This document shows positions 7,993-27,855 of a stretch of DNA of 43,393 nt, one piece after another. Source of the DNA: Chthonomonadaceae bacterium (lineage in GTDB: Bacteria > Armatimonadota > Chthonomonadetes > Chthonomonadales > Chthonomonadaceae); contig DASRGZ010000176.1 of the NCBI GenBank assembly GCA_035650735.1, positions 1 to 43,393 of the forward strand, given 5' to 3'. The translations under genes were made by a program, and so were the position numbers. Every line of letters starts with the position of its first letter. Position 1 is the stretch's first letter. The notes under the pieces are model-generated. The model made no database searches. It was not told the DNA's origin and saw only the letters and a list, made by a program, of their open reading frames with translations.

Positions 7993-9816
7993 ATCTACTA
8001 CGCGCTGTATAACTCCATATTGGCGCTGGGTTCGCCGCTGTTGGGTGCGTACCTGCTGCAGCGGTACCTATCGGGCAAGTCGCGACCGGGCTGGCGCGAG
8101 CGTTGGGGGCATCTGCCGGAGACGCTGCGCTGGCAGCCGGACGGCAGGCCGCGCGTCTGGATACATGCCGTTTCGGCGGGCGAGGTCGTGGCGGCGGCGC
8201 CGATCCTGCGGGAATTGCGTGCGCTCCTACCGGAACATGAACTGCTGCTTTCGGTCATCACGCCGGGCGGTTACGAGATGGCGACGCAGCAGGCATCAAA
8301 GTACGTGGATGCGCTCTTCTACTTCCCGTTTGACCTGCCCTGGGTGGCGCGGCGCGTGGTGGAGACGATTCGCCCGCAGGTATTCGTCAGCCTGGAAAGC
8401 GAACTATGGCCCAACGTCCTGCACGAACTGAAGCGGCAGGGTGCGGCGACCGTAATGGTCAACGGGCGCCTCTCGGAAAAGAGTTTCCGCCGCGCGCAGA
8501 GGTTCGGGCGCGGGATATTCCGCTGGGCGCTCGGTAACGTGGACCGGCTGCTGATGCAATCGGAGGCGGACGCGGAGCGAGTACGTGCGCTAGGCAACCT
8601 GGCCGAGCCGGGGCGCGTGGCCGTGCTCGGCAACTCCAAATTTGACCAGGAGATCAAGCGGCTGACGCCGGAGGAGACTCTGGCCCTGCGCCGGGAACTG
8701 CGGCTGCCTGAGGAGGCGCCCGTCTTTGTGGCCGGAAGCACGCGCAGCCCCGAAGAAGAGGCGCAGGTCATTGCGGCTTACAAGGCGATGCAGGCGCAGG
8801 TTCCCGAGCTCTGCCTGCTGATCGCGCCGCGCCACATCGAGCGCGCCGAAGAGATCGCTGCGGCCATGCGGTCGGCGGGCCTGTCGCCCGTGCGCCGCAC
8901 GCAATTGGCCCGCCCCTTAGAAGACCTCACCCCCGACCCCTCTCCTTCGCAAGGAGAGGGGAGTGGCCCTCACCCCCTGCCCCCCTACTGCCAGGGTCGG
9001 GCCTCAACGGACTGCCAGGGACGCCGCTCAACGGTTCGCGGCTCTGCCTTGCGACACCCCTCCGCCTTGCGATCCACGCTGCGGGAGAGGGGGAACCGAG
9101 AAGCCGGGTCCCCCCCTTCCCTCGCAGGGAAGGGGGACGGGGGGTTAGGTCAAAAGCAGAGGGGAGAGCAGAAGCCTTGTTCTACCCTCCTCCCCGGCCC
9201 TTCTCCCTTGCAGGGAGAAGGGGGAACAGAAGCCAGCACGACCTCTGCCCACGTAGGTGGGCAGCGGGCCTGGCTAGGCGGAGGTTCCGAACCGTTGAGG
9301 AACCGACTCTTGCAGCGCCCAACAGCGGCAGGGTTTAGCCTGCCGGGGGCCGGGGGGTTAGGTGAGGCTACCGTCCGGCATCTCATCCTGGATACGCTGG
9401 GCGAACTGGCGAACGTCTACGCGGTGGCGACATTCGCCTTTGTCGGCAACAGCTTCGAGCCGGTCGTCAAGGGCGGCGGTCAGAACTTGCTCCAGCCTCT
9501 CGCGCACGGCAAACCGGTGCTCTTTGGCCCGCGCACGGCCACGATTCGCTCGGAAGTGGCACTGGCGGTGGGGGCAGGCGTCGGGTTCCAGGTGGCCGAG
9601 GGCGCGGCGCTGGCGGCGGAAGGCTTGCGCCTGCTCTCCGATGTGGCGGCCCGCCAGGAAATCGAGCGCCGTGCCCTCGCGCTGATCGCCGCCAACCAGG
9701 GCGTCTCGGCCAGATACGCGCAGGCGGTGGCGGAGATGGCAAACGAATCGCGTCGCCCTTTGGGGAACCCCTCGGCTCTCGGCCCGAAGGCGCGGCTGAG
9801 GAGACAGCAGCCGTGA
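7993..9816 (+). CDS. waaA: 3-deoxy-D-manno-octulosonic acid (Kdo) transferase with 147-codon repeat-derived insertion
   Basis: WIHAVSAGEV, FPFDLP, ESELWPN, NGRLSEKS, GNSKFD, AGST, IAPRHIER, DTLGEL..Y, FVGNS. Start inferred at ATC 7993; the ORF track uses TTG 8020. Confidence 0.93.
   Translation: MYYALYNSILALGSPLLGAYLLQRYLSGKSRPGWRERWGHLPETLRWQPDGRPRVWIHAVSAGEVVAAAPILRELRALLPEHELLLSVITPGGYEMATQQASKYVDALFYFPFDLPWVARRVVETIRPQVFVSLESELWPNVLHELKRQGAATVMVNGRLSEKSFRRAQRFGRGIFRWALGNVDRLLMQSEADAERVRALGNLAEPGRVAVLGNSKFDQEIKRLTPEETLALRRELRLPEEAPVFVAGSTRSPEEEAQVIAAYKAMQAQVPELCLLIAPRHIERAEEIAAAMRSAGLSPVRRTQLARPLEDLTPDPSPSQGEGSGPHPLPPYCQGRASTDCQGRRSTVRGSALRHPSALRSTLRERGNREAGSPPSLAGKGDGGLGQKQRGEQKPCSTLLPGPSPLQGEGGTEASTTSAHVGGQRAWLGGGSEPLRNRLLQRPTAAGFSLPGAGGLGEATVRHLILDTLGELANVYAVATFAFVGNSFEPVVKGGGQNLLQPLAHGKPVLFGPRTATIRSEVALAVGAGVGFQVAEGAALAAEGLRLLSDVAARQEIERRALALIAANQGVSARYAQAVAEMANESRRPLGNPSALGPKARLRRQQP
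8923..9363. repeat. Composite repeat array (REP-like palindromes plus nested hairpin units) inserted in frame in waaA
   Basis: Begins ACCTCACCCCCGACCCC and ends GGGGCCGGGGGGTTAGGT. Modules are shared with intergenic arrays at 13470, 20221, 25931, 27704 and 42935. Confidence 0.92.
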
Positions 9817-10931
9817 GCGCTGCGGAGGAGTATCTGCTCTCGGTAGCGCATGGGCGGCGTGGGCTGGTTCCGGCCCTGCTGCGCGGCGGGCTGAGCGCGC
9901 TCGCCCCGGTCTACTGCGCCGGGCTGAAGACCTACCTGCTGCCGTATCGTCTGGGCCTTCGCAAGCGCGCGCGCCTGCCCTGCCCGGTCATCAGCATTGG
10001 CAACCTGACCACGGGCGGAACGGGCAAGACGCCCATGACGCAGACGCTCTGCCGCCTGTTACGGGAACGGGGCCTGCATGTCGCCGTGCTCAGCCGGGGC
10101 TACGGCGGCAGACACGAATATGGCTGCGCGGTCGTCTCCGATGGGCAGAAGACGCGGCTGAGCGCGGAGGAGGCGGGCGACGAGGCGTACCTGCTGGCTA
10201 AAACGCTGTCCGGCGTGCCCGTCGTGGTCGGCAAGGACCGGCGCGTGACCGGCGCATTGGCCTGGGCGCAGTTTCAGCCGGACGTGCTCCTCCTGGACGA
10301 CGGCCTTCAGTTCTGGCAGTTGCATCGCGATCTCGATATCGTTCTGCTCAACGCCTGCGCGCCCTTTGATAACGGCTGGACGTTCCCGCGCGGGCTGCTG
10401 CGCGAGCCGCCCTCCCATCTACGGCGGGCCGGGATCGTCGTGCTGACCAACGGAAAGCGCGCCGGGCCGCAGCAGACGCAGGCGGTACGTGATATCGCGC
10501 AGCGATTAGCGCCGGGCCGTCCCCTATTTACTGCCGACCTGGAGCCTGTCGGCCTGCGCGCCATCGCGATGCGAGCCGAGTACCCGGTCTGCTGGCTGGA
10601 GGGACGCCGGGTGTCGGCGCTGTCGGCCGTCGGTAATCCCGACTCCTTCGAGACGAGGATCACCGAGTCAGGCGGCGTGCTGGCGACGCGGTTCCGCTTC
10701 CGCGACCATCACGCGATCACGCTGGCGGACCTGGAGCGCGTCATTTCGGAATCTTGCGCGGCGGGCGCGGAGGCCGTAATCACCACCGAAAAGGATGCGG
10801 TCAAGATCGCCCCGCTCAAAAGCTCGCTGCCGCTGCTGGCCCTAAAGGTCACGATGCAGGTGGATGGCGAAGCCGCCTTCCTGGCGGCGGTACAGGAAGC
10901 AATACAGCATGACGGATCACACCACGCCTGA
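9813..10931 (+). CDS. lpxK: Tetraacyldisaccharide 4'-kinase
   Basis: PVISIGNLTTGGTGKTP, VLSRGYGG, GDEA, LLDDGLQ, PRGLLREP, TTEKDAVK. Confidence 0.95.
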   Translation: MSAAEEYLLSVAHGRRGLVPALLRGGLSALAPVYCAGLKTYLLPYRLGLRKRARLPCPVISIGNLTTGGTGKTPMTQTLCRLLRERGLHVAVLSRGYGGRHEYGCAVVSDGQKTRLSAEEAGDEAYLLAKTLSGVPVVVGKDRRVTGALAWAQFQPDVLLLDDGLQFWQLHRDLDIVLLNACAPFDNGWTFPRGLLREPPSHLRRAGIVVLTNGKRAGPQQTQAVRDIAQRLAPGRPLFTADLEPVGLRAIAMRAEYPVCWLEGRRVSALSAVGNPDSFETRITESGGVLATRFRFRDHHAITLADLERVISESCAAGAEAVITTEKDAVKIAPLKSSLPLLALKVTMQVDGEAAFLAAVQEAIQHDGSHHA

Positions 10932-11931
10932 GGCGAACGGCACGGCGGTGCCGCTGCGCAAGCGCCTGGAGCGCGCCGCAGGACGGATCGGGCTGCGCCT
11001 GGTGGTCGGCCCGGTGCGGATGATGCCGCTGCCGGTGGCGCGCGCGTTTGGCCGGGGGCTGGGCGGAGTGCTGTTCCACTCCCTGGGCCGCTATCGGCGC
11101 GTGGCGCTCAAAAACCTGGCCCTCATCTATGGCGACCTCCCGGAGGCGGAGCGTGCCCGAATGGCCCGCGCCGTGTTCCGGCACTTCGGCGAGATGGCCG
11201 CCGAGTTCGTCAAGCTGCCGCAGCTGGATCGCGACGCTATCGAGAGATTGACGCGCGTGGAGGGCGAGGAGAACCTATGCCGCGCCTTCGAGGCCGGCAA
11301 GGGCGTGCTGCTGATTACCGGGCACTTCGGCAACTGGGAGTTTCTGGGGCGCTGGCTCTCGACGCACGGTTACCCGCTCAATGTCGTCGCCCGCGACGCC
11401 CGCGACCCTGCCGCGACCAAGTTCCTGGCCGACACGCGCGAGGGCAACGGCGCGCAGGTGCTCTATCGGGGCAGCTCGGCCCGCGCCGTGCTGCAATGCT
11501 TGAAGAAGAACCAGATCGTCGCCCTGCTGCCCGATCAGAACGCCGCCGACGTAGTCGTTCCCTTTCTGGGCCAGCCGACCGGCACAGTGGACGGCCCGGC
11601 GGTCCTCCATCTGCGCACCGGAGCGCCGCTGCTGTTTAGCTGGTGCGCGCGCACGCCCGACGACCGATTTCAGATCACCTTCGAGCCGCCGGAGGTCGTG
11701 ACACCGACCGGCGACCATGCCGCCGACATCGCGCGCGTGATGACGCTCATTAACGCGCGGCTGGAGGCGCAAATCCGCCGCAGTCCGACCCAATGGCTCT
11801 GGCTGCATGACCGCTGGAAGGCATCGCCGGGGGTTTTCCCCGACGGCGAGGAGCAAGCCCGAATATTGAAAATGCCTCACAATAAATACCATCAGGAGAT
11901 GCGCGACCGCCATGACTCTAGCCGCCGTTGA
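10909..11931 (+). CDS. Lipid A late acyltransferase (LpxL/HtrB family)
   Basis: GVLLITGHFGNWE, LLPDQN, VPFLG, IRRSPTQWLWLHDRWK. Confidence 0.9.
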   Translation: MTDHTTPEANGTAVPLRKRLERAAGRIGLRLVVGPVRMMPLPVARAFGRGLGGVLFHSLGRYRRVALKNLALIYGDLPEAERARMARAVFRHFGEMAAEFVKLPQLDRDAIERLTRVEGEENLCRAFEAGKGVLLITGHFGNWEFLGRWLSTHGYPLNVVARDARDPAATKFLADTREGNGAQVLYRGSSARAVLQCLKKNQIVALLPDQNAADVVVPFLGQPTGTVDGPAVLHLRTGAPLLFSWCARTPDDRFQITFEPPEVVTPTGDHAADIARVMTLINARLEAQIRRSPTQWLWLHDRWKASPGVFPDGEEQARILKMPHNKYHQEMRDRHDSSRR

Positions 11932-13000
11932 TATGGCGTCCGTGCGGCGCGTGCTCATCATCAAGCTGAGCGCCCTGGGCGACATCATCCATGCGCTGCC
12001 CGTCTCTGCCGCCCTGGGCGAAGCCTATCCGCATCTGGAGCTGACCTGGGCCGTTGAGGAGGGGTTTGCGCCGCTAGTGGAGGGCAACCCCTACCTGACC
12101 GATGTGCTCACGCTGCCGAAGGTGCGCAGCCGCCAGTTACGCTCGGTATCGTTCCACCAGGACTACCTGCGCCGCCTGCGGGATGTCCGTCACCGCCGCT
12201 TTGATCTCACGCTCGACCTACAGGGGCTGACCAAGAGCGCGGTGATAGCCGCCGCATCGGGCGCGCGGGTGCGCCTGGGCTATCACCACCAGCGCGAGGC
12301 GGCGTCCTGGCTGGTGCGTCCCGTGCCGCCCCGCCCGGAGAGCACGCACGTGGTCGATCACTACCTGGACGTGGCCCGGTTCCTGGGTGCCGATCCGGAG
12401 ACGGTGCGGTTTCCGTTTCATATCCCGGAAGTGGACGATGCGATGGTGCAGGCCATGCTGTGCGAGGCGGGACTCGATCCGTGCGCGCCCTTTGTCGCCT
12501 TCAATCCGGCGTCCGCTCTGGCAATCAAGCAATGGGACGCGGAGAACTATGCCGCCCTGATGGACGCGGTGCAGGAGCGGCTGGGGCTGCCCGTGGTCCT
12601 GGTCACGGCGGATTGGGTCGTTGCGGACCGGGTGGCGGCGGCGGCGCGGCGGCCTTTCGCCAATCTGTGCGGGCGCACGACCTTGAAGCAGTTGGCGGCG
12701 GTCCTGCGCCGATGCGCTCTCCATATCTGCGGGGATACCGGCTCGGGGCATCTGGCGGCGGCGCTGGGGCGTTCGGTTATCGCCCTCATGGGGCCGACGA
12801 ACCCGGATCGCGCCTGCCCCTACGGGCAGCGGGAGAACGTGCTCAGCCTGCGCCAATTCTGCGGCGCGACCTGCAATGGGCACCGCTGCCAGTTTGCGCG
12901 TCCCCGCTGCCTGGAGGCTATCGGCGTGAGTGATGTGCTGGCGCGCATCGAACGGCTGGCCGGCAGGGCGCTGGAATGGGCAAGCGGCCCGGCGCGCTAA
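11912..13000 (+). CDS. GT9 LPS heptosyltransferase (WaaC-like)
   Basis: VLIIKLSALGDIIHALP, DLQGLTKS, GDTGSGHLAAALG, GPT. Confidence 0.88.
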   Translation: MTLAAVDMASVRRVLIIKLSALGDIIHALPVSAALGEAYPHLELTWAVEEGFAPLVEGNPYLTDVLTLPKVRSRQLRSVSFHQDYLRRLRDVRHRRFDLTLDLQGLTKSAVIAAASGARVRLGYHHQREAASWLVRPVPPRPESTHVVDHYLDVARFLGADPETVRFPFHIPEVDDAMVQAMLCEAGLDPCAPFVAFNPASALAIKQWDAENYAALMDAVQERLGLPVVLVTADWVVADRVAAAARRPFANLCGRTTLKQLAAVLRRCALHICGDTGSGHLAAALGRSVIALMGPTNPDRACPYGQRENVLSLRQFCGATCNGHRCQFARPRCLEAIGVSDVLARIERLAGRALEWASGPAR

Positions 13001-13033
13001 CGGCAGGATGGGACGGCTCAGAATAGGAAACTA

Positions 13034-13462
13034 ATGGAGACAGAACAGGCGCGCACAACGCAACTAATATATCGTGAGGAGCCCGATCTGACGGCGGAAG
13101 CGTTCGTGGATGTTCTGGAAAGGTCCGGGCTGGCGGCACGTCGGCCGGTGGACGACCTGGAGCGCATCCGGCGGATGCTGGCCCATGCCGACCTGATCCT
13201 CTGCGCCCGGGCTGGGGAACGGCTAATTGGCGTTGCGCGGACCATCAGCGACTTTGCTTACTGCGCCTACCTCTCGGACCTGGCCGTGGATCGGGCGTAT
13301 CAGCGGCAGGGCATCGGCAAGGAGCTCATCCGGCGCTCGCACGAGATTCTGGGGGAGGAGGTCATGCTGCTGCTGCTCTCCGCGCCGGCTGCGCACGCTT
13401 ACTACCCGCACATCGGCTTCGCCAAAGCGGACAACGCCTGGTTCCTTCCGCGCCAGCGGTAA
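13034..13462 (+). CDS. GNAT family N-acetyltransferase
   Basis: AYLSDLAVDRAYQRQGIGKELI (motif A), YYPHIGF. Confidence 0.88.
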   Translation: METEQARTTQLIYREEPDLTAEAFVDVLERSGLAARRPVDDLERIRRMLAHADLILCARAGERLIGVARTISDFAYCAYLSDLAVDRAYQRQGIGKELIRRSHEILGEEVMLLLLSAPAAHAYYPHIGFAKADNAWFLPRQR

Positions 13463-13469
13463 CTGGTTT

Positions 13470-13726
13470 ACCTAACCCCCCGGCTCCCACTGCCAGGGTC
13501 GGGCCTGCAATAATTCGGCCCTCCGCCTCGCAACACCTTGCGACCCTACTCGCTCGTACCTCGCTAGAGAAGGGGGGACCCGGCTTCTCTTTTCCCTTCT
13601 CCCTTGCAGGGAGAAGAGACGGGGATGAGGGGAGATAAAAGAGAACGGGAAAACCTGGGAGTGCCGGGCCTCCCCTCTCCTTACGAAGGAGAGGGGCCGG
13701 GGTGAGGTCTACTGGGGGGTGAGGGC
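13470..13726. repeat. Composite intergenic repeat array
   Basis: ACCTAACCCCCCGG start, hairpin unit 13489-13543, AGGGGGGACCCGGCTTCT module and CCCCTCTCC..GGAGAGGGG palindromes. Confidence 0.88.
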
Positions 13727-13805
13727 ATTAGCCGTCCACGGCGAAGCAGGAAAATGCAGCAACAATCATCAATAGTACGCAAAGTTTGCACAGCGTAATG
13801 GAGTT

Positions 13806-13901
13806 TTGGTAATCCCTCCCAACCGTGTTGACGCTTCTCATGGAGCGCACGCTTTTGAGATGTATCCACACGATTGGGGGTGTCTACGGGAGTTTTACCA
13901 A
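13806..13901 (+). promoter_or_regulatory. Long imperfect 5'-UTR hairpin that occludes the kdoO RBS and start codon
   Basis: Pairings TTGGTAA/TTACCAA, TCCC/GGGA(G), CTCCCAACCGTGT/ACACGATTGGGGG, TCTCA/TGAGA, GAGCG/CGCTT. Confidence 0.5.
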
Positions 13902-14845
13902 TGGAAGTGATTCCGATGGATACGAATCGGATAGAGGAGAGCGAGTACCGTCTCCGGCTATGCGAGCAGCTGGAGCGGGGCAATATCCTGCTGCTGCCCC
14001 ACGCGCCGTTTGTGCCCTCGGAGGCGGACAGCGCCTTTTTGCGGCAACAGCACCAGTCCGAAAAGGCTTATCATAAGAATATCGCTTATAAGCCGCGCCT
14101 CAACCGCACGACCGGAGTGAAGGCGCTCAACACGGAGGATGCCGAGCGCATGAACGCGATCCTAGGCGACTATTCGCGCGGCGCGGTGGCGTTCCTGAGC
14201 GCGCTGTTCCCCAATTATGCGCGCGCCTGGCAGGTGGATTACGCCAGCTTTCGGCCCGTGGAGGAGGCGGGACGGATGCTGCCCCTGCGGCACCGCAACG
14301 ACCTGATGCACGTGGATGCGTTCCCTACCCGTCCCACCCACGGCGGGCGCATTCTGCGGGCCTTCACGAACCTGAATGCCGACCGTACGCGCGTCTGGGC
14401 CACCGCCGATTCGTTCGAAGACCTTGCCGCCCGCTATGCCCGCGACGCCGGGCTGGATCGCGTTACCAGCCCGCAGGCAGCGGTCGCCCGCTCCATCGCG
14501 AAGTTAGCGCGTAAAATCGGTATGCGCGTCCCGGATCGCTCTCCCTACGACCAGTTTATGCTTCAGTTCCATCACTATCTCAAAGCCAACGCCGAGTTCC
14601 AGAGGACGGGACAGCGCCGCACGCTGGCCTTCGCGCCGGGCGCAACCTGGATCACCTTCACCGACCAGGTGGCCCATGCCGTGCTTTCCGGGCAATACGC
14701 TCTGGAGCAGACCTGTATCGTCCCGTTCCAGGCCATGACGCTGCCGGAACTGGCCCCGGTGGCGGTGCTGGAGCGGCTGTCAGGGCGGCCTCTCATCGCG
14801 CACCCGTCTGTGCCTGCCGCTGCGCCGGAAAAACTGGCCGTCTGA
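13901..14845 (+). CDS. kdoO: Kdo 3-hydroxylase (Kdo to Ko dioxygenase) family
   Basis: HKNIAY, ASFRPVEE, LMHVDAFPTRP..GGRILRAFTN, RSPYDQFMLQFHHYLK, FTDQVAHAVLSGQYALEQT. Confidence 0.88.
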   Translation: MEVIPMDTNRIEESEYRLRLCEQLERGNILLLPHAPFVPSEADSAFLRQQHQSEKAYHKNIAYKPRLNRTTGVKALNTEDAERMNAILGDYSRGAVAFLSALFPNYARAWQVDYASFRPVEEAGRMLPLRHRNDLMHVDAFPTRPTHGGRILRAFTNLNADRTRVWATADSFEDLAARYARDAGLDRVTSPQAAVARSIAKLARKIGMRVPDRSPYDQFMLQFHHYLKANAEFQRTGQRRTLAFAPGATWITFTDQVAHAVLSGQYALEQTCIVPFQAMTLPELAPVAVLERLSGRPLIAHPSVPAAAPEKLAV

Positions 14846-14859
14846 GCGTCTGTACGGTG

Positions 14860-16062
14860 ATGCCCCAAGCCAATCTGCCCGATCTGCATAACGTCCGCCG
14901 CCTGCTCATCATCCGCCTGAGCTCCATTGGCGATGTGGTTCACGCGCTGCCCCTCTCCGCTGCCCTGGCAGAGGCGTACCCGCACCTGGAACTCTCCTGG
15001 GTCGTTGAGGAGATGTCGGCCGAGGTCGTTACCGGCAATCCCTATCTAAAAGAGGTCATCGTGGTGCCGCGTGGGCGCTGGAGGCAAGGGCGGCTGCGCT
15101 CGCCGCACGTATGGAGCGAGTACCTGGCGTTCCTGGCCGGGCTGCGCCAGCGCCGCTTCGAGGTCACGCTGGATTTGCAGGGCTATGGCAAAAGCGCGCT
15201 GATGGCCCTGGCAGCCGGCGCTCCCTACCGGCTGGGCTGGTGGCGGCTGCGGGATGGGGCTGGGCTGGTCTCTCGCGCCCTCCCACGCCGACCGGAAAGC
15301 GCACACCGCGTGGATTGGTTCCTGGACGTGGCGCGGGCGCTGGGCGTGGAGCCGAAAACGGTACGCTTCCCGCTCTCTATCCCCGACGTGGCCCGCGCGC
15401 AGGTCGCCGCACGGCTCTGCGCGGCGGGCATCGCGCCGCAGCGGCCCTATGCCGTTCTCAATCCGGCGACCGGCAACGAGGTGCGCCGCTGGGGCGCGGA
15501 GCGATATGCGGAACTGGCCGCAGGGCTCGCCTCCCGGTTCGGGCTGCCTTCCGTGCTGATCGGCTCCGGCAAGGACAGGCCGATCTGCGAGGAGGTCATA
15601 ACGCGCGCCCGACAGAAGATGGAGCGGGCAAGCCCACTTGCGTCCGCCACGAACGCCGAGGCGCCTCTGGAGCCGGTCAGCCTGGCCGGGCAGACGAATT
15701 TGAAGGAGTTGGCCGCGCTACTGGAGGGCTGCGCGGTGCAGGTCTGCGGCGATACCGGCTCGGCGCATATTGCCGCCGCGCTGGGCCGCCCGACCATCGG
15801 CCTGTACGGGCCGACCGATCCGGCCCATGCCGGACCCTGGGGCCAGAGCGAGAACGTGCTTTCCCATCGCGCGCTCTGCCATGCCGATTGCACGGTGCGG
15901 CAGTGCGCGTTTGTGGACGCCCCTCCTCACTCGAAGCGGGAGGGCGAGGACGCCGGCCCGGAGGGAAAAGCGCTTCCCGAAGACACGACCGCGCGCTGCC
16001 TGCGCGCCATCACACCGGACGAAGTCCTTCAGAGAATAGAACGAGTGCTCCATGACAGGTAA
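14860..16062 (+). CDS. GT9 LPS heptosyltransferase family
   Basis: LLIIRLSSIGDVVHALP, DLQGYGKS, GDTGSAHIAAALG, YGPT. Confidence 0.88.
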   Translation: MPQANLPDLHNVRRLLIIRLSSIGDVVHALPLSAALAEAYPHLELSWVVEEMSAEVVTGNPYLKEVIVVPRGRWRQGRLRSPHVWSEYLAFLAGLRQRRFEVTLDLQGYGKSALMALAAGAPYRLGWWRLRDGAGLVSRALPRRPESAHRVDWFLDVARALGVEPKTVRFPLSIPDVARAQVAARLCAAGIAPQRPYAVLNPATGNEVRRWGAERYAELAAGLASRFGLPSVLIGSGKDRPICEEVITRARQKMERASPLASATNAEAPLEPVSLAGQTNLKELAALLEGCAVQVCGDTGSAHIAAALGRPTIGLYGPTDPAHAGPWGQSENVLSHRALCHADCTVRQCAFVDAPPHSKREGEDAGPEGKALPEDTTARCLRAITPDEVLQRIERVLHDR

Positions 16063-17302: not shown

Positions 17303-20211
<2,909 letters not shown>

Positions 20212-20220
20212 GGTGAAAAA

Positions 20221-20462
20221 GGCCCCCACCCCCTTCCCACTGCCAGGGTCGGCGCTCAACGGTTCGCGCCACTGCCAGGGTCGGCAAGGTTACGGCCCTT
20301 GCCTCCGCCTGGCCACACCTAGCGATCCCCAAGAACAGGGGAGGGGAGAGCAGAAGCCGGGTCCCCCCTTCCCTGTGAGCAAAGCGAACGTTAGGGTCGC
20401 TAGGCGGAGGGGCGAACCACATTGTAGCCCCGACCCTGGCAGTGGGGGCTGGGGGGTTAGGT
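20221..20462. repeat. Composite intergenic repeat array with nested hairpin units
   Basis: Unit 20239-20325 contains unit 20271-20316; inverted unit at 20397-20443; ends GGGGGGTTAGGT. Confidence 0.9.
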
Positions 20463-20484
20463 CAAAAGGAGAAGGGGAAAGGCC

Positions 20485-21522
20485 ATGCATGAAATCGTAG
20501 ACTTGCGAAGCGATACCGTCACGCGCCCGACGCCGGAGATGCGCCGCGCCATTGCCGAGGCGGAGGTCGGCGACGACGTATTTGACGACGACCCGACCAT
20601 CCATCGGTTGCAAGCGGTGGCGGCGGCGAAGATGGGCAAGGAGGCGGGGCTGTTCGTGCCTTCGGGAACGATGAGCAACGCCGTCGCTATCAAGACCCAT
20701 ACCAGGCCCGGCGATGAGATCTTGCTGGACACGCAGGCCCACTCCATGATCTATGAAGTCGGGATGCCCGCCACCATAGCCAATGTCCTGACCCGGCAAT
20801 TCCACTGCCGGCACGGCGTTCCCGATGTGGACGAGGTCGCGAGCCTGATGCGTACCGAGAACCTGCACGCGCCAGGCACGGCGCTGCTGGTCCTGGAGAA
20901 CACGCACAACCGCGCGGGCGGAGCCATTATCCCGCTGGAGGTGCATCAGGCGCTCTGGAAGCTGGCGCAGGAGCGTGGCGTGCGCGTGCACCTGGATGGG
21001 GCGCGGCTCTTTAATGCGGCGGTGGCGACCGGCATTCCGGCCTCGGAGTACGCCGCCTGCGCCGACTCGGTGACGTTCTGCCTCTCGAAAGGGCTGGGCT
21101 GTCCGGTCGGCTCCGTGCTGTGCGGCACGCAGGATTTCATTGCGCGGGCGCGGCGCGTGCGCAAGATGCTGGGCGGGGGTATGCGGCAGGCCGGGATACT
21201 GGCGGCGGCGGGCCTCTACGCGCTGGAGCACCATATTGACCGGCTGGCCGAGGATCACAGGCACGCGCGGCGGCTGGCGCAGGGCATCGCGCACGCCCCC
21301 GGCATCACGCTGGATACGGTGGATGTGCCGACGAATATGGTCTACATGACCACGCAGGCGCCGGCCCGCGCCTTCGCCGACCGGCTGGCTTCTGAGCACA
21401 AAGTCCTCGGCATCCCCACGGCTGCTAACCGTATTCGCCTGGTGACGCACCTGGACGTGGACGCCGAGGACATCGAGCGGGCCATCGCCGCCATCTGCGA
21501 CGTTGGCAGCCGGATGGCTTGA
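20485..21522 (+). CDS. ltaE: Low-specificity L-threonine aldolase (PLP)
   Basis: DLRSDTVTRPT, VGDDV, SGTMSN, LENTHN, HLDGARLFNA, CLSKGLGCPVGS, GGGMRQAG. Confidence 0.95.
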   Translation: MHEIVDLRSDTVTRPTPEMRRAIAEAEVGDDVFDDDPTIHRLQAVAAAKMGKEAGLFVPSGTMSNAVAIKTHTRPGDEILLDTQAHSMIYEVGMPATIANVLTRQFHCRHGVPDVDEVASLMRTENLHAPGTALLVLENTHNRAGGAIIPLEVHQALWKLAQERGVRVHLDGARLFNAAVATGIPASEYAACADSVTFCLSKGLGCPVGSVLCGTQDFIARARRVRKMLGGGMRQAGILAAAGLYALEHHIDRLAEDHRHARRLAQGIAHAPGITLDTVDVPTNMVYMTTQAPARAFADRLASEHKVLGIPTAANRIRLVTHLDVDAEDIERAIAAICDVGSRMA

Positions 21523-21560
21523 TTCCCCGGCAGGCTCAACCCTGCCGCATTCAGGCGGAG

Positions 21561-21798
21561 CAGGGTCCTTCGGTTTTCCGCCCCTCTCCGCCGGGCACGG
21601 AAAGTACCCGGCTATGGGGCCTAACGGCCAAGCGACTGCAAGGGACGGCGCTACGCTTGCTCGCGCCTTTGCCTTGCGACTGGCGGACGCGCCTGTCCCG
21701 CAGGAGTTTCCGTCCGAAGGACGCTTGGCGGCGCAGCCGCCCTCTAGAAGGGTACTTTCCGTGCCCGGCGGAGAGGGGCGGAAAACCGAAGGACCCTG
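21561..21798. mobile_element. Non-autonomous MITE-like element, 238 bp, with 49-bp perfect terminal inverted repeats
   Basis: CAGGGTCCTTCGGTTTTCCGCCCCTCTCCGCCGGGCACGGAAAGTACCC at 21561-21609 and its exact reverse complement at 21750-21798; AG on both flanks. Confidence 0.85.
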
Positions 21799-21808
21799 AG
21801 GGCGGAAA

Positions 21809-23590
21809 TCAGCGGGGGAAGACGACGGTGGCCGTGATGCCCTGGCCCGACGGATCGTTCTCCAGGGTGAAGGTGCCCTGCAGGTCCCCCCGCACCAGCG
21901 TCTCTACGATGCTTAGGCCCAGGCTGTTGGTATGGCGGGGCGTGAACCCCGCCGGCAGCGGCTCCCCATCGTTTTGCACGATCAGCCGCAGCTCCTTCTC
22001 GCACTCTTCTAGCTGGATATGAATACGGCCCTCGGAAAGCGTCCGGAACCCATGCTCCACCGCGTTCTGCACCAACTCGTTCAAGACCAGCGCTACCGAG
22101 GTCGCCTTCGCCAGCGGCAGCACAAAGTCGTCGCCCTCGACCTGCATGCGGATGGCCTTCTCCGGGGAGACCACGCTCTGCTGGGTGCCGTGCATCAGAC
22201 TCTCGGCCACCTTCTTGATGCTTACCGAGTCCAGGTCGTCCCGGCTTAAAAGCTCGTGGACGCTGGAGATAGCCAGGATGCGGCTGAGCGTATCGTTGAG
22301 AGCGTCTTCGACCGTCGTGTATTTGCTGAAGCGCATCTCCAGGCGCACCAGGCTGACGATCTGCTGGAGGTTGTTCTTGACCCGGTGGTGCATCTCCTGG
22401 ACGACCGCCGAGCGCACCAGCAGCTTGGCGTGCTCGATGGCCAGGGCCGCCTGGGTGCCCAGCGCCTGCAGAATGGCCAGCTCCTCGGCGCTGAAGGTGT
22501 GGACCTTCTCGGTGTAGCAGTTGAGCACGCCGATGACCTCGCCCTTGATCAGGAGCGGGATGCTGGCTATCGAGCGCACGCCCGCACGTTGGGCGATGTC
22601 GGGGAAGCGATACTCCGGGGCCTTCTGGACATCCTGAACGGTAATCACGCGCCGCTCGGCGACGGCCCGACCGGAGACACTTTCGCCGATCTTGAGGTTG
22701 GGCTTTTTGGCGTACTCCTTGCTGTCGGCCTGGGTGGCCTTGATGACCAGCTCGTCCTTCTCCTTATCCACGAGCATGACGGTGCAGATCTTGTAGCCCA
22801 TGGTGCGGGCGGTCATGGTGACGAAGAAGTGGAGCAGCTCCTCCAGGTACATATTGGAGGTGATGGCCTGGCTGACTTCCGAGAGCGAGTGGAGCTGAAC
22901 GGCGTGGCGCTCCAGTTGCCGGAAGCGGCGTGAGCGCTCAATGGCCCCGGCGACCTGGTTGGCGATGCCCGAGAGCAGGCGCACCTGGTTCTTGGTGTAG
23001 TCGCGGGGGCGGCGGGTGCGCACGTTGATAACGCCCAGGATTTCGCCGCGCGCCACCAGCGGCACGGAGAGCATAGACTCGTACTCGCCCTCCAGCATTT
23101 CGGGGAAGAACTTGAAGCGGTGGTCTTTATAGGCTTCCCGGCTGACCGAGACGGGCTTGCGCTCCCGGGCCACCCAGCCGGTGATGCCCTCGCCGAGCTT
23201 GAGGCGGATCTTGCCGATCATGTTGGAGAAGCTTTCGTCGGCGGCGCGCAGCACCAGCTCCTCCTTGTTCGAGTCGAACAAATAGACCTGGCAGGAGTCG
23301 GTGCCGGTGATGTGGACGGCGATATCGGCGGTGACCTTGAGCATCTCCTCCAGGTCGAAGGCCGAGCCGGTGGCCTCACCGACGCGGCGCAGGGCCTCCG
23401 CCTCGCCGCGCTTCTCCTCCAGCTCGCCACGCAGCCGATCAATGAGCACGGAGGCTTCGCGCAGCTGGCGGTCGCGCGCATCCAGCTCCTGCTGCAAGAG
23501 GGCGATATCCGGGTCGTCGCTGCGGCGGAGTGCGGCGAAGAGGCGGCGGGTGCGCCAGGGCGTTCGAATTCGGGTTAGACGGTCTTTCAT
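21809..23590 (-). CDS. Cytoplasmic sensor histidine kinase: coiled coil + 2 GAF + HisKA_2 + HATPase (PdtaS/EutW-like)
   Basis: QEMHHRVKNNLQ, LVLNELVQNAVEHG, NDG, SLGLSIV and two GAF repeats. Start is 23590 or 23689. Confidence 0.9.
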   Translation of the reverse strand: MKDRLTRIRTPWRTRRLFAALRRSDDPDIALLQQELDARDRQLREASVLIDRLRGELEEKRGEAEALRRVGEATGSAFDLEEMLKVTADIAVHITGTDSCQVYLFDSNKEELVLRAADESFSNMIGKIRLKLGEGITGWVARERKPVSVSREAYKDHRFKFFPEMLEGEYESMLSVPLVARGEILGVINVRTRRPRDYTKNQVRLLSGIANQVAGAIERSRRFRQLERHAVQLHSLSEVSQAITSNMYLEELLHFFVTMTARTMGYKICTVMLVDKEKDELVIKATQADSKEYAKKPNLKIGESVSGRAVAERRVITVQDVQKAPEYRFPDIAQRAGVRSIASIPLLIKGEVIGVLNCYTEKVHTFSAEELAILQALGTQAALAIEHAKLLVRSAVVQEMHHRVKNNLQQIVSLVRLEMRFSKYTTVEDALNDTLSRILAISSVHELLSRDDLDSVSIKKVAESLMHGTQQSVVSPEKAIRMQVEGDDFVLPLAKATSVALVLNELVQNAVEHGFRTLSEGRIHIQLEECEKELRLIVQNDGEPLPAGFTPRHTNSLGLSIVETLVRGDLQGTFTLENDPSGQGITATVVFPR

Positions 23591-23710
23591 AGATCCTCTC
23601 GGCCAGGAAACCGCACGGCTTGACTGCAAGACCAAACGTTCAACGGTTGGCGTTTGCCGCCTTACGCCATACGCGAGGAATGGCCGCATTCCTCCTTTTG
23701 AGCCGGTGGT

Positions 23711-24292
23711 TTATACGTTGTGGGCAATAATGATCGCCTCGGCGATCTCACGCATGGACTTGCGGGTATTCATGCTCTGCACCTGGATGCGGCGGAAGGC
23801 TTCCTGCTCCTTGAGGCCGTACTGATCCATCAGGATGCCCTTGGCGCGATCCACGGCCTTACGGGTCTCCAGCTTCTCCTCCATGTCGGCGGCCTGCTCC
23901 TCGATCTTGAGGAAGGCTTCCCAGCGGGCGACGGCGATCTCGATCTGGGGCCGCAGGTCAGCCTCTTTGAAGGGCTTGACCAGATAGGAGAAGACGCCTG
24001 CCTCCTTAGCGCGATTGATCAATTCGAGTTGGCTATAAGCCGTCAGCAATAGCACGGGGGCGATCTTCTCCTCCGTGATGATTTTAGCGGCATCAATGCC
24101 GTCTATTTCCGGCATTTTAATGTCCAGGATCACGGCATCCGGCTTGAGGTTGCGTGCCGCTTCGATAGCCTTGGCGCCATCTCCAGCCTCGGCGACGACA
24201 TCATAGCCGCAATCTTCCAGCATTTTCTTCAGATCAAGACGAATGATAGGATCGTCGTCGGCAATAACAATACGCAGCGGTTTCTCGCTCAA
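23711..24292 (-). CDS. Response regulator with ANTAR RNA-binding domain (PdtaR/EutV-like)
   Basis: IADDD, LDIKMP, YLVKPF receiver domain; LETRKAVDRAKGILM..EQEAFRRIQVQSMNTRKSMREIAEAII ANTAR domain; GGAGG SD before TTG 24292. Confidence 0.93.
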   Translation of the reverse strand: MSEKPLRIVIADDDPIIRLDLKKMLEDCGYDVVAEAGDGAKAIEAARNLKPDAVILDIKMPEIDGIDAAKIITEEKIAPVLLLTAYSQLELINRAKEAGVFSYLVKPFKEADLRPQIEIAVARWEAFLKIEEQAADMEEKLETRKAVDRAKGILMDQYGLKEQEAFRRIQVQSMNTRKSMREIAEAIIIAHNV

Positions 24293-24620
24293 AGTAGTCC
24301 TCCAAGACGGGTTAACAGGCAGACACAGCAGGGCGCCGTGTCGAGCGTTCTCTTGCAATCAAACAGACCGGCATCACGGGAAGCAATCTCAACCAGGAGG
24401 CCGATTCGACAAAGTCGAGCAATTGGCGGAACAAGGCAGGAAGCGGAAGTGAGGGCGCAGGTCAGGAGGCCGCACCACACACGAAGGACCAAGATAGAGG
24501 AGGGTCGGGGAGGTGACGCGCGCCACACGCCCTGCCAGGAGCATTCCCGTCGAAGCGGCGGCATCCTCCTCGATGCCGCACGGTTTTTGGTCGGCTTACG
24601 CCAACGAAGGCCAGGGTGGC

Positions 24621-24669
24621 TTGACGCTTTCTACCACCTATTATATAATAGTTTGCGTGCGTTTGTCAA
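24621..24669. promoter_or_regulatory. Bidirectional sigma70-type promoter with a shared palindromic -10 region
   Basis: Plus strand TTGACG(24621)-17-TATAAT(24644); minus strand TTGACA(24669)-18-TATAAT(24645); TATTATATAATA is a perfect palindrome. Confidence 0.75.
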
Positions 24670-24847
24670 AGCGTTTTTCGGCTCTCTCTTGTTTAGCGCA
24701 GGAGTTGTCGAATGCCTTGCCAGTAGATTTGCGCCCTGGCTCGCCAAAAGCAAACGTACCTGCAAGCGGTTCGTCACTCCCGTTAGCGCATCCGGCGCTG
24801 CCTTTTGTTGGCGCGCTCCCATATTGAAGTTTGGAGATCACGGGTCC

Positions 24848-25870
24848 TTGAAGAAGAATACGCCGCCTGATATGCCGTCTCTCCTGCCCTCGGCGCCGGA
24901 GGCATCCGCTTCCGGCACGCCTGCCGAAGAGAAGACGGCAGCTTCCCTTCCTCCCCTGGCGGCCGAACCGCCGCTGCATGCCAGGAACAGAGCTGAACGG
25001 GCTGAGGGCTGGCGCGCGCTCCTGCTCGGGCTGAGTTGTCTGCTTTTCTGGAAGGCGACGCTGCTTATCCCCTCCGGCCAGCCCGTCGTCGTCTGGACGA
25101 CGACGCTGCTCTATCTGCTGATTACCCTCTGCTTTACGGTACAGACGGCGCGCGCATTGCGCTCGCCCGCTTCGGTTGCGTTCAACCTCTGCCTCTCCGG
25201 CGCGCTGGCGCTGCCGAGCATCCTGGTTCCCCTTCTGGCGATGCGCTTCCCCGAATGGCACGGCTGGGTTTCCATCGGCCCCTTCTTCCTGTCCTACCAG
25301 CGGGCGCTAATGTTGGCGCCGGGTCTGCATGGCTTGCTGCTGATATGGTTTGCGACCAGTATTGGGGTGGGACTCTCCAGGGCCGTTCGGGAGGTCAAGC
25401 TGCTGCTGCCGATGGCGGTAGCGTTGGCGCTGGTGGATCTCTACGTCGTCTACTGGGGCGGGCTGGTGGCGCAGGCGACTTCCGGGCATAGTCAGATGGC
25501 GCAGGCCGCGATGCAGACGCTGACCGTCAAGATGCCCCGTCCCCTGACCCGGCATGGCGCGGCACCGATGGGGCTGGCGGTCGGTTTTGCGGATTTCCTG
25601 TTTATCGCTCTGTTCTTTGCCTGCTTCGCGCGATTCGGCATTCCCTCAGGCCGCACGTTTGGCGTGCTCTGTGGGGTGCTGGCGGTCTATATGCTGGCGG
25701 TAGGGCTGATCGGATGGGACTTGCCCGCGCTGGTGCCGGTTGGCGTGGTCGTCATTGGCCTGAACTGGCGCCGGTTCCGCTACGAGCGCAGCGAAGCCTT
25801 CGCGCTGCTCTACGCCGCCCTGATCGCGCTTGCTGTCGTGGCTGGGCTCTACTTCCTCTCCCACCGCTGA
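24848..25870 (+). CDS. Polytopic membrane protein with presenilin/signal-peptide-peptidase-like motifs
   Basis: About 9 hydrophobic segments; ALVDLYVV, VGFADFLF and LPALVP in the YD/GxGD/PAL order. Start is TTG 24848 or ATG 24872. Confidence 0.7.
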   Translation: MKKNTPPDMPSLLPSAPEASASGTPAEEKTAASLPPLAAEPPLHARNRAERAEGWRALLLGLSCLLFWKATLLIPSGQPVVVWTTTLLYLLITLCFTVQTARALRSPASVAFNLCLSGALALPSILVPLLAMRFPEWHGWVSIGPFFLSYQRALMLAPGLHGLLLIWFATSIGVGLSRAVREVKLLLPMAVALALVDLYVVYWGGLVAQATSGHSQMAQAAMQTLTVKMPRPLTRHGAAPMGLAVGFADFLFIALFFACFARFGIPSGRTFGVLCGVLAVYMLAVGLIGWDLPALVPVGVVVIGLNWRRFRYERSEAFALLYAALIALAVVAGLYFLSHR

Positions 25871-25930
25871 TACGGCCTCAGCCCCCATGCCCCTTCGGGT
25901 CACCCTCTCGCATGAGAATGCCTCTCCCCT

Positions 25931-26238
25931 CTGCCGGTGGACCTAACCCCCCGGCCCCCACTGCAAGGACGAGCGGCCTGCTTACGGGCCTGATGGTTGG
26001 GCCTGCCGGTGGACCTAACCCCCCCGGCCCCCACTGCAAGGGTCGGCGCTCAACGGTTCGCGCCACTGCCAGGGTCGGGCCTGCAATAATTCGGCCCTCC
26101 GCCTCGCGACACCTTGCGACCCTACAAGGGAAGGGGGGACCCGGCTTCTGCTCTCCCCTCTCGTTGTGCAGGAGAGGGGCCGGGGGTGAGGTTTCTCCCC
26201 TCTCCCGCAGCGTGGGAGAGGGGTTGGGGGTGAGGGCC
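25931..26238. repeat. Composite repeat array between convergent genes
   Basis: 38-bp direct repeat (25931-25968, 26003-26041), nested units 26033-26119 and 26065-26110, and REP-like palindromes. Confidence 0.9.
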
Positions 26239-26248
26239 ATTGGAGAAG

Positions 26249-27676
26249 TCACCGACGGACGGGCGTCTCCTCCCGAGGAGCTTCCAGGTCTGGGGGCGTC
26301 ACGAGCACCGTCGTGCCATCACGGTTGATTTGAGTCTCGGCAGGCGGCGCGGCATTCTCTTCCCCGACCTTCGGCTGCCAGGTCAGGCGCACCTGAGTGA
26401 TGCGCCTGCCGTCGGTGGCCTCGACGGTGAACTCCACGTTCTCCCAGGAAACATGCTCTCCCTGCTCGGCCTGGTGGCCCAGCAGGCTAAAGACGAAGCC
26501 GCCGATGGTATCGGCCTCCTCCTCCGGCAGTTCCAGCCCCAGCCGGTCGTTGACGTCGCTCAGGGCCATGCGGCCATCTACCAGGGCCATGTTGTCGGCG
26601 AGGATATCCAGCGTCGGCTCCTCTATATCATACTCATCCTGAATTTCGCCGACGATCTCCTCAAGTAGGTCTTCAATGGTCACGACGCCGACCACCGTGC
26701 CATACTCATCCTGGACGATCGCCATATGGGTGCGGCTGCGCCGCATCTCCGCCAGCAGGTAGCCCGCGCGCTTGCTTTCCGGAATCACGTAGGCCGGATG
26801 CATCAGCTCGCGCACATTGACGGTGCGCGAGCGGGCCAGGCTCCGCAGCACGTCTTTGGCATGGATCACGCCCAGGATATTATCCAGGGTCCCTTCATAG
26901 ACGGGCAGGCGCGAGTGGCCCGATTCGGAGATGACCCGGATGAGCTCCTCGGTGCCGGCGTTGACCTCGACCGCCGTGATGTCCAGGCGCGGCGTCATCA
27001 GCTTGCGGACGACGGTATCCTCAAAATCGAAGACGCCCGTGACCATGCGCTCCTGCTGCTCTTCCAGCAGGCCGGCCTCGGCGGTGGAGTGCACCAGCAG
27101 TTCGAGTTCATCCACGGAGTGGACGGCGGTATGCTCGCCGACGGGCTGCAAGCCAATGGCGCGCAGCACAAAGTTCCCCGCCATATTCAGCGCCAAGATC
27201 GCCGGACGGAAGATGCGCAGGAAGAGGTTGAGCGGCCCGGTCAGCAGCAGCGCCATGCGATCCGAGCGCTGGATCGCTACGCTCTTGGGGACGAGCTCGC
27301 CTAGAACGATATGGAAGGAGGTGACGATGGCGAAGGCGATGGCTAAGGCGAAGGCATGGGACGTAATCGCTGCGCCCTGGGCCGGCAGCCAGCGGCTAAA
27401 CAACGGATCGATCAGGTGCGCCACGAACGGTTCGCCGACGGACCCCAGCCCCAGCGAGGCCATCGTGATGCCCAGCTGCGTGCCGGCGATGCAGGTATCC
27501 AGCCGCGACAGTGCCCGCAGCACGCTCTGCGCCGAACGGCTGCCCTCGTTTGCAAGCTGCTCCATACGGCTGTGGCGAACGCTCACCAGCGCGAACTCCG
27601 CCGCCACGAAGAAGCCGTTCAGGAGCACCAGCGCCAGAACTGCCAGCAGCCCGAAACTCGAATTTAGGAAGCTCAT
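26249..27676 (-). CDS. CNNM/HlyC-CorC family transporter (DUF21-CBS-CBS-CorC)
   Basis: LNGFFVAAEFALVSVR, QLGIT, GELVPKS, MTPR, HSRLPVY, DEYG..GVVTIEDLLEEIVGEIQDEYD, DTIGG. Confidence 0.92.
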   Translation of the reverse strand: MSFLNSSFGLLAVLALVLLNGFFVAAEFALVSVRHSRMEQLANEGSRSAQSVLRALSRLDTCIAGTQLGITMASLGLGSVGEPFVAHLIDPLFSRWLPAQGAAITSHAFALAIAFAIVTSFHIVLGELVPKSVAIQRSDRMALLLTGPLNLFLRIFRPAILALNMAGNFVLRAIGLQPVGEHTAVHSVDELELLVHSTAEAGLLEEQQERMVTGVFDFEDTVVRKLMTPRLDITAVEVNAGTEELIRVISESGHSRLPVYEGTLDNILGVIHAKDVLRSLARSRTVNVRELMHPAYVIPESKRAGYLLAEMRRSRTHMAIVQDEYGTVVGVVTIEDLLEEIVGEIQDEYDIEEPTLDILADNMALVDGRMALSDVNDRLGLELPEEEADTIGGFVFSLLGHQAEQGEHVSWENVEFTVEATDGRRITQVRLTWQPKVGEENAAPPAETQINRDGTTVLVTPPDLEAPREETPVRR

Positions 27677-27703
27677 TCTCTTGTCTGCGCCCCGCCGTCC
27701 GTT

Positions 27704-27855
27704 ACCTAACCCCCCGTCCCCCATTGCTAGGGTCGGGGCTGCCATGGTTCGCCCCTCCGCCTAGCGACCCTACCCGCTCGTTCCTCGCTAGGGAAGGGGG
27801 GACCCAACTTCTGCTCTCCCCTCTCCTTTAGAAGGAGAGGGTACGGGGGTGAGGT
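27704..27855. repeat. Composite repeat array with imperfect terminal inverted repeats
   Basis: ACCTAACCCCCCGT...GTACGGGGGTGAGGT; single hairpin unit at 27723-27767. Confidence 0.88.

Follow-up and report, generated by a model that had tools for sequence, protein, structure and literature searches.

How bacterial repeats shorter than 50 nt spread has long been an open question, and it is raised by a hairpin unit in a contig of a Chthonomonadaceae bacterium (DASRGZ010000176.1; the whole 43,393-nt stretch analyzed is referred to as the window). A preliminary description of the window had noted about 14 copies of a dispersed unit that appeared to conserve structure rather than sequence, and had proposed an undescribed micro-mobile element whose enzyme lies elsewhere. 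What is this unit, and how does it reach its sites? Our analysis supported a structure-conserving micro-mobile element: no Rfam RNA family matched the window at the gathering score, no tag of the repetitive extragenic palindromic (REP) kind was present, and the window contained no mobile-element enzyme. The element is almost certainly mobile. As for how it moves, we consider it probable that it is a non-autonomous element of 44–45 nt that spreads by copy-and-paste, works in the form of folded single-stranded DNA and depends on an enzyme acting in trans.

The host is a single soil bacterium, whose genome (G000; 6.52 Mb, 224 contigs, 97.6% complete) contained 734 exact left ends on 162 of the 224 contigs, compared with 2.8 expected genome-wide under a fourth-order Markov model. 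The exact full pattern matched 349 times in the genome and not once on the reversed control. A recursive parse, in which the innermost copy is collapsed and the sequence is parsed again, yielded 844 elements. Because its relaxed pattern gave 36 and 34 matches on the reversed and complemented controls, respectively, and 756 of the parsed elements had at most one mismatch in the left end, the copy number was estimated at about 750–810. Intact units (n = 471) were 45 nt (347), 44 nt (117) or 46 nt (7) long and carried no gene. On the plus strand, they consist of ACTGC-N-AGG, a 3-nt internal-loop side (GTC or GAC), an inner stem of 5–7 bp closing a 7–11-nt loop, a 4-nt side (TCCG, TCTG or TTTG) and CCT-N-GC(G/C)A, with ACTG and GCGA as the termini. 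A 48-nt form in a related genome (G001) retains these termini with a different interior, which marks the termini as the fixed part.

The covariation that the preliminary description had reported for the inner stem was borne out, as 203 of 216 distinct 45-mers had a Watson-Crick pair at 15/31, 192 had one at 16/30 and 199 at 17/29, compared with 113, 73 and 98 expected, respectively. Among 16 cross-species 44-mers, 92.2% of cells paired versus 78.4% after shuffling (0 of 500 shuffles; the shuffle ignores kinship), sliding controls gave 34–51%, and five of the six inner pairs changed on both sides. The outer stem had also been described as covarying; there the signal was weak. It is conserved in sequence, with five of six pairs invariant, and its one variable pair is loosely coupled, being Watson-Crick in 88 of the 216 distinct 45-mers (56 expected), with C.T as the commonest state. 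The suggestion that a single strand is read stood, in agreement with the fixed strand of nesting described below. The mismatch beside the inner stem was C.T on the plus strand in 255 of 264 distinct units (A.G on the opposite strand), and the loop-closing pair was T.C in 169 of 200 (G.A on the opposite strand). Because only the minus-sense strand forms A.G and G.A at both ends of the inner stem, we infer that the strand that is folded and recognized is the one reading TCGC...GCAGT. A kink-turn reading was rejected, the bulge being 1 nt and not 3. Copies with an inverted interior or a flank fold-back were observed in G000 at C42 ~3830, C139 ~34360 and C115 ~3840, and resemble template switches at a hairpin.

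The targets were almost only other hairpin repeats, a property that the first reading lacked, as it did the loss of target bases. A high-copy repeat lay on at least one side of 466 of 482 outermost copies, compared with 371 of 3000 random sites. The host repeats included CCCCTCTCCC-type and CCCCCTTCCCT-type hairpins, REP-like repeats that flank Y1 genes, and a GTGGGGC family; in another organism, the host was a repeat type that flanks a GxxExxY gene in G000. At least five unrelated hairpin families served as targets. Overall, 14-mers occurring at least 10 times covered 5.0% of the assembly, in which several hairpin families were present without their usual enzyme gene. The folding energy of rebuilt host sites differed modestly from that of controls (median −11.2 versus −9.2 kcal/mol). 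At L032:1237–1345, an element abuts the end of an IS630-type transposase gene, which appears to have inserted in the element's CTAG.

Empty sites were matched for 133 of 337 distinct flank pairs, and in 112 of these the empty site was 2 nt longer than the filled one. Counted per element, 362 of 829 matched an empty site, with a net change of minus 2 in 294, minus 3 to 6 in 55, 0 or minus 1 in 11, and a gain in 2; no target-site duplication was seen. The lost pair was two pyrimidines on the plus strand (TT, TC, CT or CC) in 272 of the 294 cases. The next two target bases followed a distinct pattern: CG became CA in 123 of 126 and CC became TC in 56 of 92, while CT and GG were unchanged in 40 of 54 and 5 of 6, respectively. 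By distinct context, CG became CA in 47 and was kept in none in G000. CA after the element was also found in a second related genome (G010), at three G001 loci and on several contigs from metagenomes; the related repeats without an element had CG there. The junction outcome follows the target class and not the donor subfamily. The base change may derive from enzymatic or repair-linked cytosine conversion, or from selection of rare CA targets. The GTGGGGC host family obeys a second junction rule, in which the element often begins with G or T instead of A and four target bases are missing, in several subfamilies. Pairing of the loop with the target as a guide fitted a single subfamily, whose loop reads CGCTTG and flank CAAGCG and whose 10 copies probably go back to one event, and none of the others; the guide rule of IS608, compared by hand, fitted neither strand.

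The C-to-T type of these changes, together with the use of at least five unrelated target families, would suit capture at breaks. Here the target would be opened by a mismatch nuclease or by a hairpin-cutting nuclease belonging to one of the host repeat families (RAYT, Ssn-like, DUF559-like or GxxExxY), and a released hairpin would be ligated or copied into it by host repair; the changed base would then mark the deaminated cytosine that had attracted the cut. One Vsr gene and six PDDEXK_3 (GxxExxY) matches are indeed present in the genome. However, repair would hardly keep the ends, the orientation and the 2-nt loss constant, and no single nick rule fits, because the two base changes lie on opposite strands. 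Moreover, the Vsr gene adjoins a cytosine methyltransferase and is free of elements, the GxxExxY genes have repeats of their own, and no free DUF559 or Ssn gene was found in the genome. We therefore regard capture at breaks as improbable.

The earlier term 'dispersed' holds in so far as the unit is mobile and present in many copies; the copies are also nested, which had been missed. Of the 756 elements, 247 lay inside another element, all but one of them (246) on the strand of the parent. Entry points in the parent fell at offsets 20/21, 24/25, 29 and 32/33, nests reached up to five levels, and at least 81 distinct parent/child combinations were present. Some of the commonest intact types have no loop target, which suggests that types escaping self-insertion are favored by selection. 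Joined flanks resembling an excision scar were found for 1 of 298 flank pairs, and no head-to-tail tandem was found, which fits copying without excision. One compound that had captured a 35-nt foreign spacer served as a lineage marker and was represented by 14 contig pieces, some of which are possibly halves of one locus. Its seven readable left contexts lay in three host-repeat types; the outer left end was the start in five and the inner left end in two, indicating that compounds of about 165 nt move as units with their cargo and that each end is chosen separately from the other. The 55 left and 103 right orphan remnants agree with separate end choice; one of them lies in the window (13534–13543, +), a right-end remnant of a former parent that was carried along as an outer end.

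These data also bear on the idea that a few founder insertions were followed by spread through gene conversion among similar repeats, the changed junction bases being a legacy of the founders. Some subfamilies keep to a single type of host (CCAAGCG sites in 10 of 10 cases), and the variable outer pair is scrambled, both in line with conversion. Nevertheless, the spacer-marked compound sits in three unrelated host repeats, the parent/child combinations are numerous (at least 81), the junction bases follow the target class and not the donor, and the same footprint occurs in other species, which leaves conversion very unlikely.

An RNA intermediate was also considered, in which the minus-sense strand would fold as a small RNA and, through target-primed reverse transcription or RNA-templated repair, give rise to a copy in a nicked target hairpin. 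The covarying stem and the G.A pairs, which would be sheared, suit RNA as well as DNA, copying is scarless, and both ends can read through into flanking remnants. R2 retroelements make an offset second-strand cut, and such a cut would give the 2-nt loss. On the other hand, the 97.6% complete genome contains no RVT_1 candidate and the element has no Rfam match, both ends are base-precise, and no 5'-truncation series appeared in the parse. The orientation to neighboring genes was also unbiased (166 versus 135 in the relaxed set), and this, with the lack of an RVT_1 match, fits DNA better than RNA. We hold an RNA route to be unlikely, and a single-stranded DNA route to be probable.

In the reading we favor, that of folded single-stranded DNA, a trans-acting enzyme would bind the folded strand TCGC...GCAGT, dock on an intact hairpin, and cut either where that hairpin itself ends or at the following end-like sequence in a parent. 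In the folded target it would break two bonds separated by 2 nt, or a single bond with trimming afterwards, whereupon the copy would be joined into the opened target and fixed by replication; the cytosine beside the junction would be converted during the reaction or its repair. More specifically, and tentatively, the element could be the substrate of an undescribed single-stranded DNA integrase that needs about nine fixed bases per end and a folded spacer, recognizes target hairpins by shape, joins the ends 2 nt apart with conversion of the neighboring cytosine, copies without excision and carries cargo. Were this so, gene-less nested hairpins of a like kind in other phyla would be acted on by enzymes of that class. 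It is doubtful that the moving enzyme is of the HUH/Y1 kind, because a 2-nt loss is not known to be part of Y1 chemistry. For an enzyme that binds hairpins strand-specifically and can cut on either side, the closest working model would by analogy be TnpA-REP, which, according to the accessible part of its description (PMC8266576), recognizes a bulged hairpin on one strand and cleaves 5' or 3' to it.

Several observations weigh against this reading. None of the enzymes that the preliminary description had suggested (HUH/RAYT, IS110-type, reverse transcriptase or DUF559) could be linked to the element, nor could any other in our searches for Y1/RAYT, IS110, reverse transcriptase, Ssn, DUF559, IntI and Vsr. 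G000 has two full Y1 genes (L001:1438–1974 and L002:1369–1809), each flanked by repeats of their own; no element left end occurs in either locus, and one gene carries HVP in place of the HUH motif while the other is frameshifted. Y1 genes occur in 44 of 61 genomes and the element in 4 of 61, and they therefore do not track it; moreover, Y1 chemistry is not known to lose target bases. The empty sites are paralogous repeats and not orthologous loci, no matching empty site was found for 467 of the 829 elements, and among the 362 with a match, 68 differed by lengths other than minus 2. Four sequencing runs that were compared consist of contigs that likewise break at the repeats, so that joints in them may be either empty alleles or other copies of a repeat. 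The CG-to-CA change is not obligatory, since CG was kept at five G001 sites. Element counts overstate the number of events, because host repeats may have spread with the element inside them, and no strand bias was found relative to GC skew (232 versus 225). Finally, TnpA-REP is described as cutting at CT or CA beside a GTAG tag in the portion of the source available (PMC8266576), and the element lacks that tag.

The search for the enzyme covered both known families and neighboring genes. In G000, Y1 gave three matches, none near an element, and both full Y1 genes look disabled from their sequence, though their flanking repeats are abundant. RVT_1 and IS110 each gave no match in G000. The single DUF559 match in G000 was the end domain of a helicase, and the single GIY-YIG match lay within a 618-aa frame; no stand-alone (Ssn) gene of the latter kind was found. 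Of nine tyrosine recombinase matches, eight were scanned and none of these reached the integron integrase cut-off. Five of the six PDDEXK_3/GxxExxY matches were inspected, most having their own repeats, and such genes were present in 18 of 37 genomes. By eye, the 20 genes with an element on both sides looked ordinary and none resembled a nuclease, and no candidate enzyme was seen among the repeat-bounded frames listed (of 212). No enzyme recurred among 80 predicted genes beside the element in other organisms (10 scanned with Pfam), and no long autonomous version appeared among the left-over ends listed in the recursive parse. As the assembly breaks at these repeats, the enzyme gene may be unassembled, or it may have been lost.

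A different kind of insertion is also common in this genome. Outside the main CRISPR array, we observed 188 close duplications, 150 of which had periods of 60–80 nt with peaks at 61, 66–68 and 72–75. These scars are duplications of about 30 or 37 nt around inserts of 30–40 nt; true mini-arrays and repeated copies of a single event are among them. Of 125 scar inserts, 21 matched elsewhere in the genome. The CRISPR array present has a 30-nt repeat, and an array with a 37-nt repeat was not found in the genome. Several scars end on the first 8 bases of the element, which may mimic a CRISPR repeat end. In the window, a 37-nt duplication around a 35-nt foreign insert (25931–26040, +) ends in this way; it is an off-target CRISPR-type spacer scar and not the element's own footprint. 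The cas1 gene (L029:6751–7929, on G000:C93) contains an in-frame insert of ~60 codons, which is not the 44–45-nt element, and its locus holds type I and type III genes. Integration of the hairpin by Cas1-Cas2 would be in keeping with the many off-target spacer-like scars, 8 of 125 of which overlap an element, but these scars duplicate 30–37 nt of the target, whereas the element duplicates nothing and deletes 2 nt. Consequently, we give this explanation almost no credence.

The family is narrow, being found in a few Chthonomonadaceae genomes. The exact pattern occurred in 3 of 60 relatives, namely G001 (5), G010 (1) and G019 (1). The G019 copy is probably not independent, as its contig (C128, L005) appears to be mis-binned: the marked compound of G000 there adjoins the start of rpoB, which G000 lacks. 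A covariance model (E up to 0.1) gave 18 matches in G001, 8 in G010, and none in 150 other genomes of the phylum (42 candidates scored per genome). A metagenome scan, built to skip the common types of G000, returned 24 stretches. Two of these had no inner stem, 2 matched G000 exactly, 4 matched G001 exactly, and the remaining 16 belonged to other organisms. In a scan of a genome collection, two of the at least three matches listed were Chthonomonadaceae; a Ruegeria match among those listed lay in coding sequence without the inner stem and was rejected. Viral contigs gave no match.

The window itself is an ordinary piece of chromosome with lipid A and lipopolysaccharide genes, CNNM transporters and ybeY. 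All copies named in the preliminary description exist, as 12 exact left ends of the form ACTGCNAGGG(T/A)C, one at 27723 with one mismatch, and a degenerate copy at 9271–9316 (−), and their coordinates were correct except for two that were one base off (true starts 9011 and 21635). As separate units, however, those at 8987, 20239 and 26033 and two of the three in 1–134 did not hold, since they are the left halves of parents split by another copy. At the start of the window, the recursive parse resolved a three-level nest (4–133, −) within a CCAAGCG-type REP-like hairpin, with the outer element at 4–133, the middle one at 26–112 and an intact inner 44-mer at 40–83. Two-level nests start at 8987, 20239 and 26033. 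In the first (8987–9072, +), the host is a CCCCTCTCCC-type hairpin repeat whose pyrimidine arm holds the parent, and the parent is split in its apical loop by an intact 44-nt child (9011–9054, +); the parent has lost 2 nt, and its next CG reads CA. In the other two (20239–20325 and 26033–26119, both +), the parent is split at the internal loop by an intact 45-nt child (20271–20315, + and 26065–26109, +, respectively), the former child having a 7-bp inner stem. Intact 45-mers occupy CCCCCTTCCCT-type hairpin repeats at 13489–13533 (+) and 27723–27767 (+), the latter with TT lost, and a CCAAGCG-type REP at 21635–21679 (+), within a long inverted repeat (21561–21798). A 47-nt copy with two extra loop bases also lies in a CCCCCTTCCCT-type repeat (20397–20443, −), and the degenerate copy at 9271–9316 (−) is 46 nt long, begins with G and lies in a GTGGGGC-type repeat.

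The frame of waaA (Kdo transferase; 8020–9816, +; 598 aa) contains an in-frame repeat cluster of ~450 nt (~8915–9365). This insert of ~150 codons comprises several hairpin repeat families, including three elements, and the reading frame stays open; waaA of the relatives G001 and G010 lacks the cluster. Besides waaA, about a dozen further predicted genes carry the element in frame within repeat clusters (16 listed, 2 of which look like chance matches). Through its in-frame presence in coding sequences, the element reshapes genes.

Among known systems, integron attC sites also conserve structure over sequence and have one strand read, as the element does; the element, however, lacks terminal AAC/GTT core boxes, cassette genes and an integron integrase above the cut-off. 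IS200/IS605 insertion sequences insert beside a fixed tetranucleotide without loss or duplication, and their excision leaves a joined donor site, whereas the element has variable flanking dinucleotides, loses 2 nt and shows joined flanks in one of 298 pairs. To our knowledge, no known transposase or recombinase leaves this footprint. The family thus offers a precise footprint against which to test enzymes, with fixed ends and strand, 2-nt loss, junction base change, end skipping and cargo, in hundreds of events in one genome, and the enzyme, if found, would be a minimal copy-in integrase for hairpin targets.

Miniature inverted-repeat transposable elements have target-site duplications and terminal inverted repeats in the part of PMC3184786 available to us, whereas here the net change was minus 2 in 294 of 362 cases, with a gain in 2. 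The element resembles the REP/REPIN-RAYT system as a short, high-copy, strand-specific bulged hairpin, and some REPs are described as sitting inside other palindromes and in frame in genes (PMC8266576, PMC3116915 and PMC3733652, as far as accessible). It differs in that GTAG occurs at the foot of 0 of 471 units and no CGTC tag is present, CTAC (48 of 471) being read as the host flank CCCTAC. It also lacks a flanking Y1 gene and the constant CT/CA cut site given in the accessible text, inserts into REPs without itself being one, and causes the 2-nt loss. IS1397, IS621 and IS1594 use REP-like hairpins as targets at fixed positions, according to the sections of PMC3184786 available, and the element likewise enters REP-like hairpins at fixed positions; those elements encode a transposase, whereas the 45-nt element deletes target bases and the genome has no IS110 gene. 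The Ssn nuclease is associated with NTS/SRM repeats, which in the accessible text of PMC11893778 are directional 20–50-nt hairpins of hundreds of copies read as single-stranded DNA, and in this they resemble the element. No single-domain GIY-YIG gene is flanked by our element, and that portion of PMC11893778 does not describe nesting for SRM repeats.

No description of the element family or of its footprint was found in the literature searched, in which most subscription papers, including the one on the small dispersed repeats (SDRs) of Nostoc, were beyond reach. SDR1–8 of Nostocaceae, attributed to Elhai et al. 2008, are reportedly 21–27 nt long, keep their structure by compensatory change, nest in themselves and have no known enzyme. 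The element shares this self-nesting and compensatory change, and differs in being 44–48 nt long and in occurring in Chthonomonadaceae. The earlier label 'undescribed' stands for Rfam, and has to be qualified in that tiny self-nesting structured repeats already appear to be in print for Nostoc. The citing papers, as far as available, describe SDRs as very small, gene-less and precisely inserted, with SDR5 entering the palindromic repeat HIP1 between two of its bases, and report them only in Nostocaceae (PMC4390886, PMC5861425). The element is likewise gene-less, tiny and precisely inserted into other repeats, but it loses 2 target nt with a junction base change where SDR5 is described as inserted between HIP1 bases, and its end skipping and cargo do not feature in the descriptions of SDRs in these parts of the citing literature. 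Overall, as far as SDRs are described in the citing literature, the element works like the SDRs of Nostoc and is, by its length and its range, not one of them.

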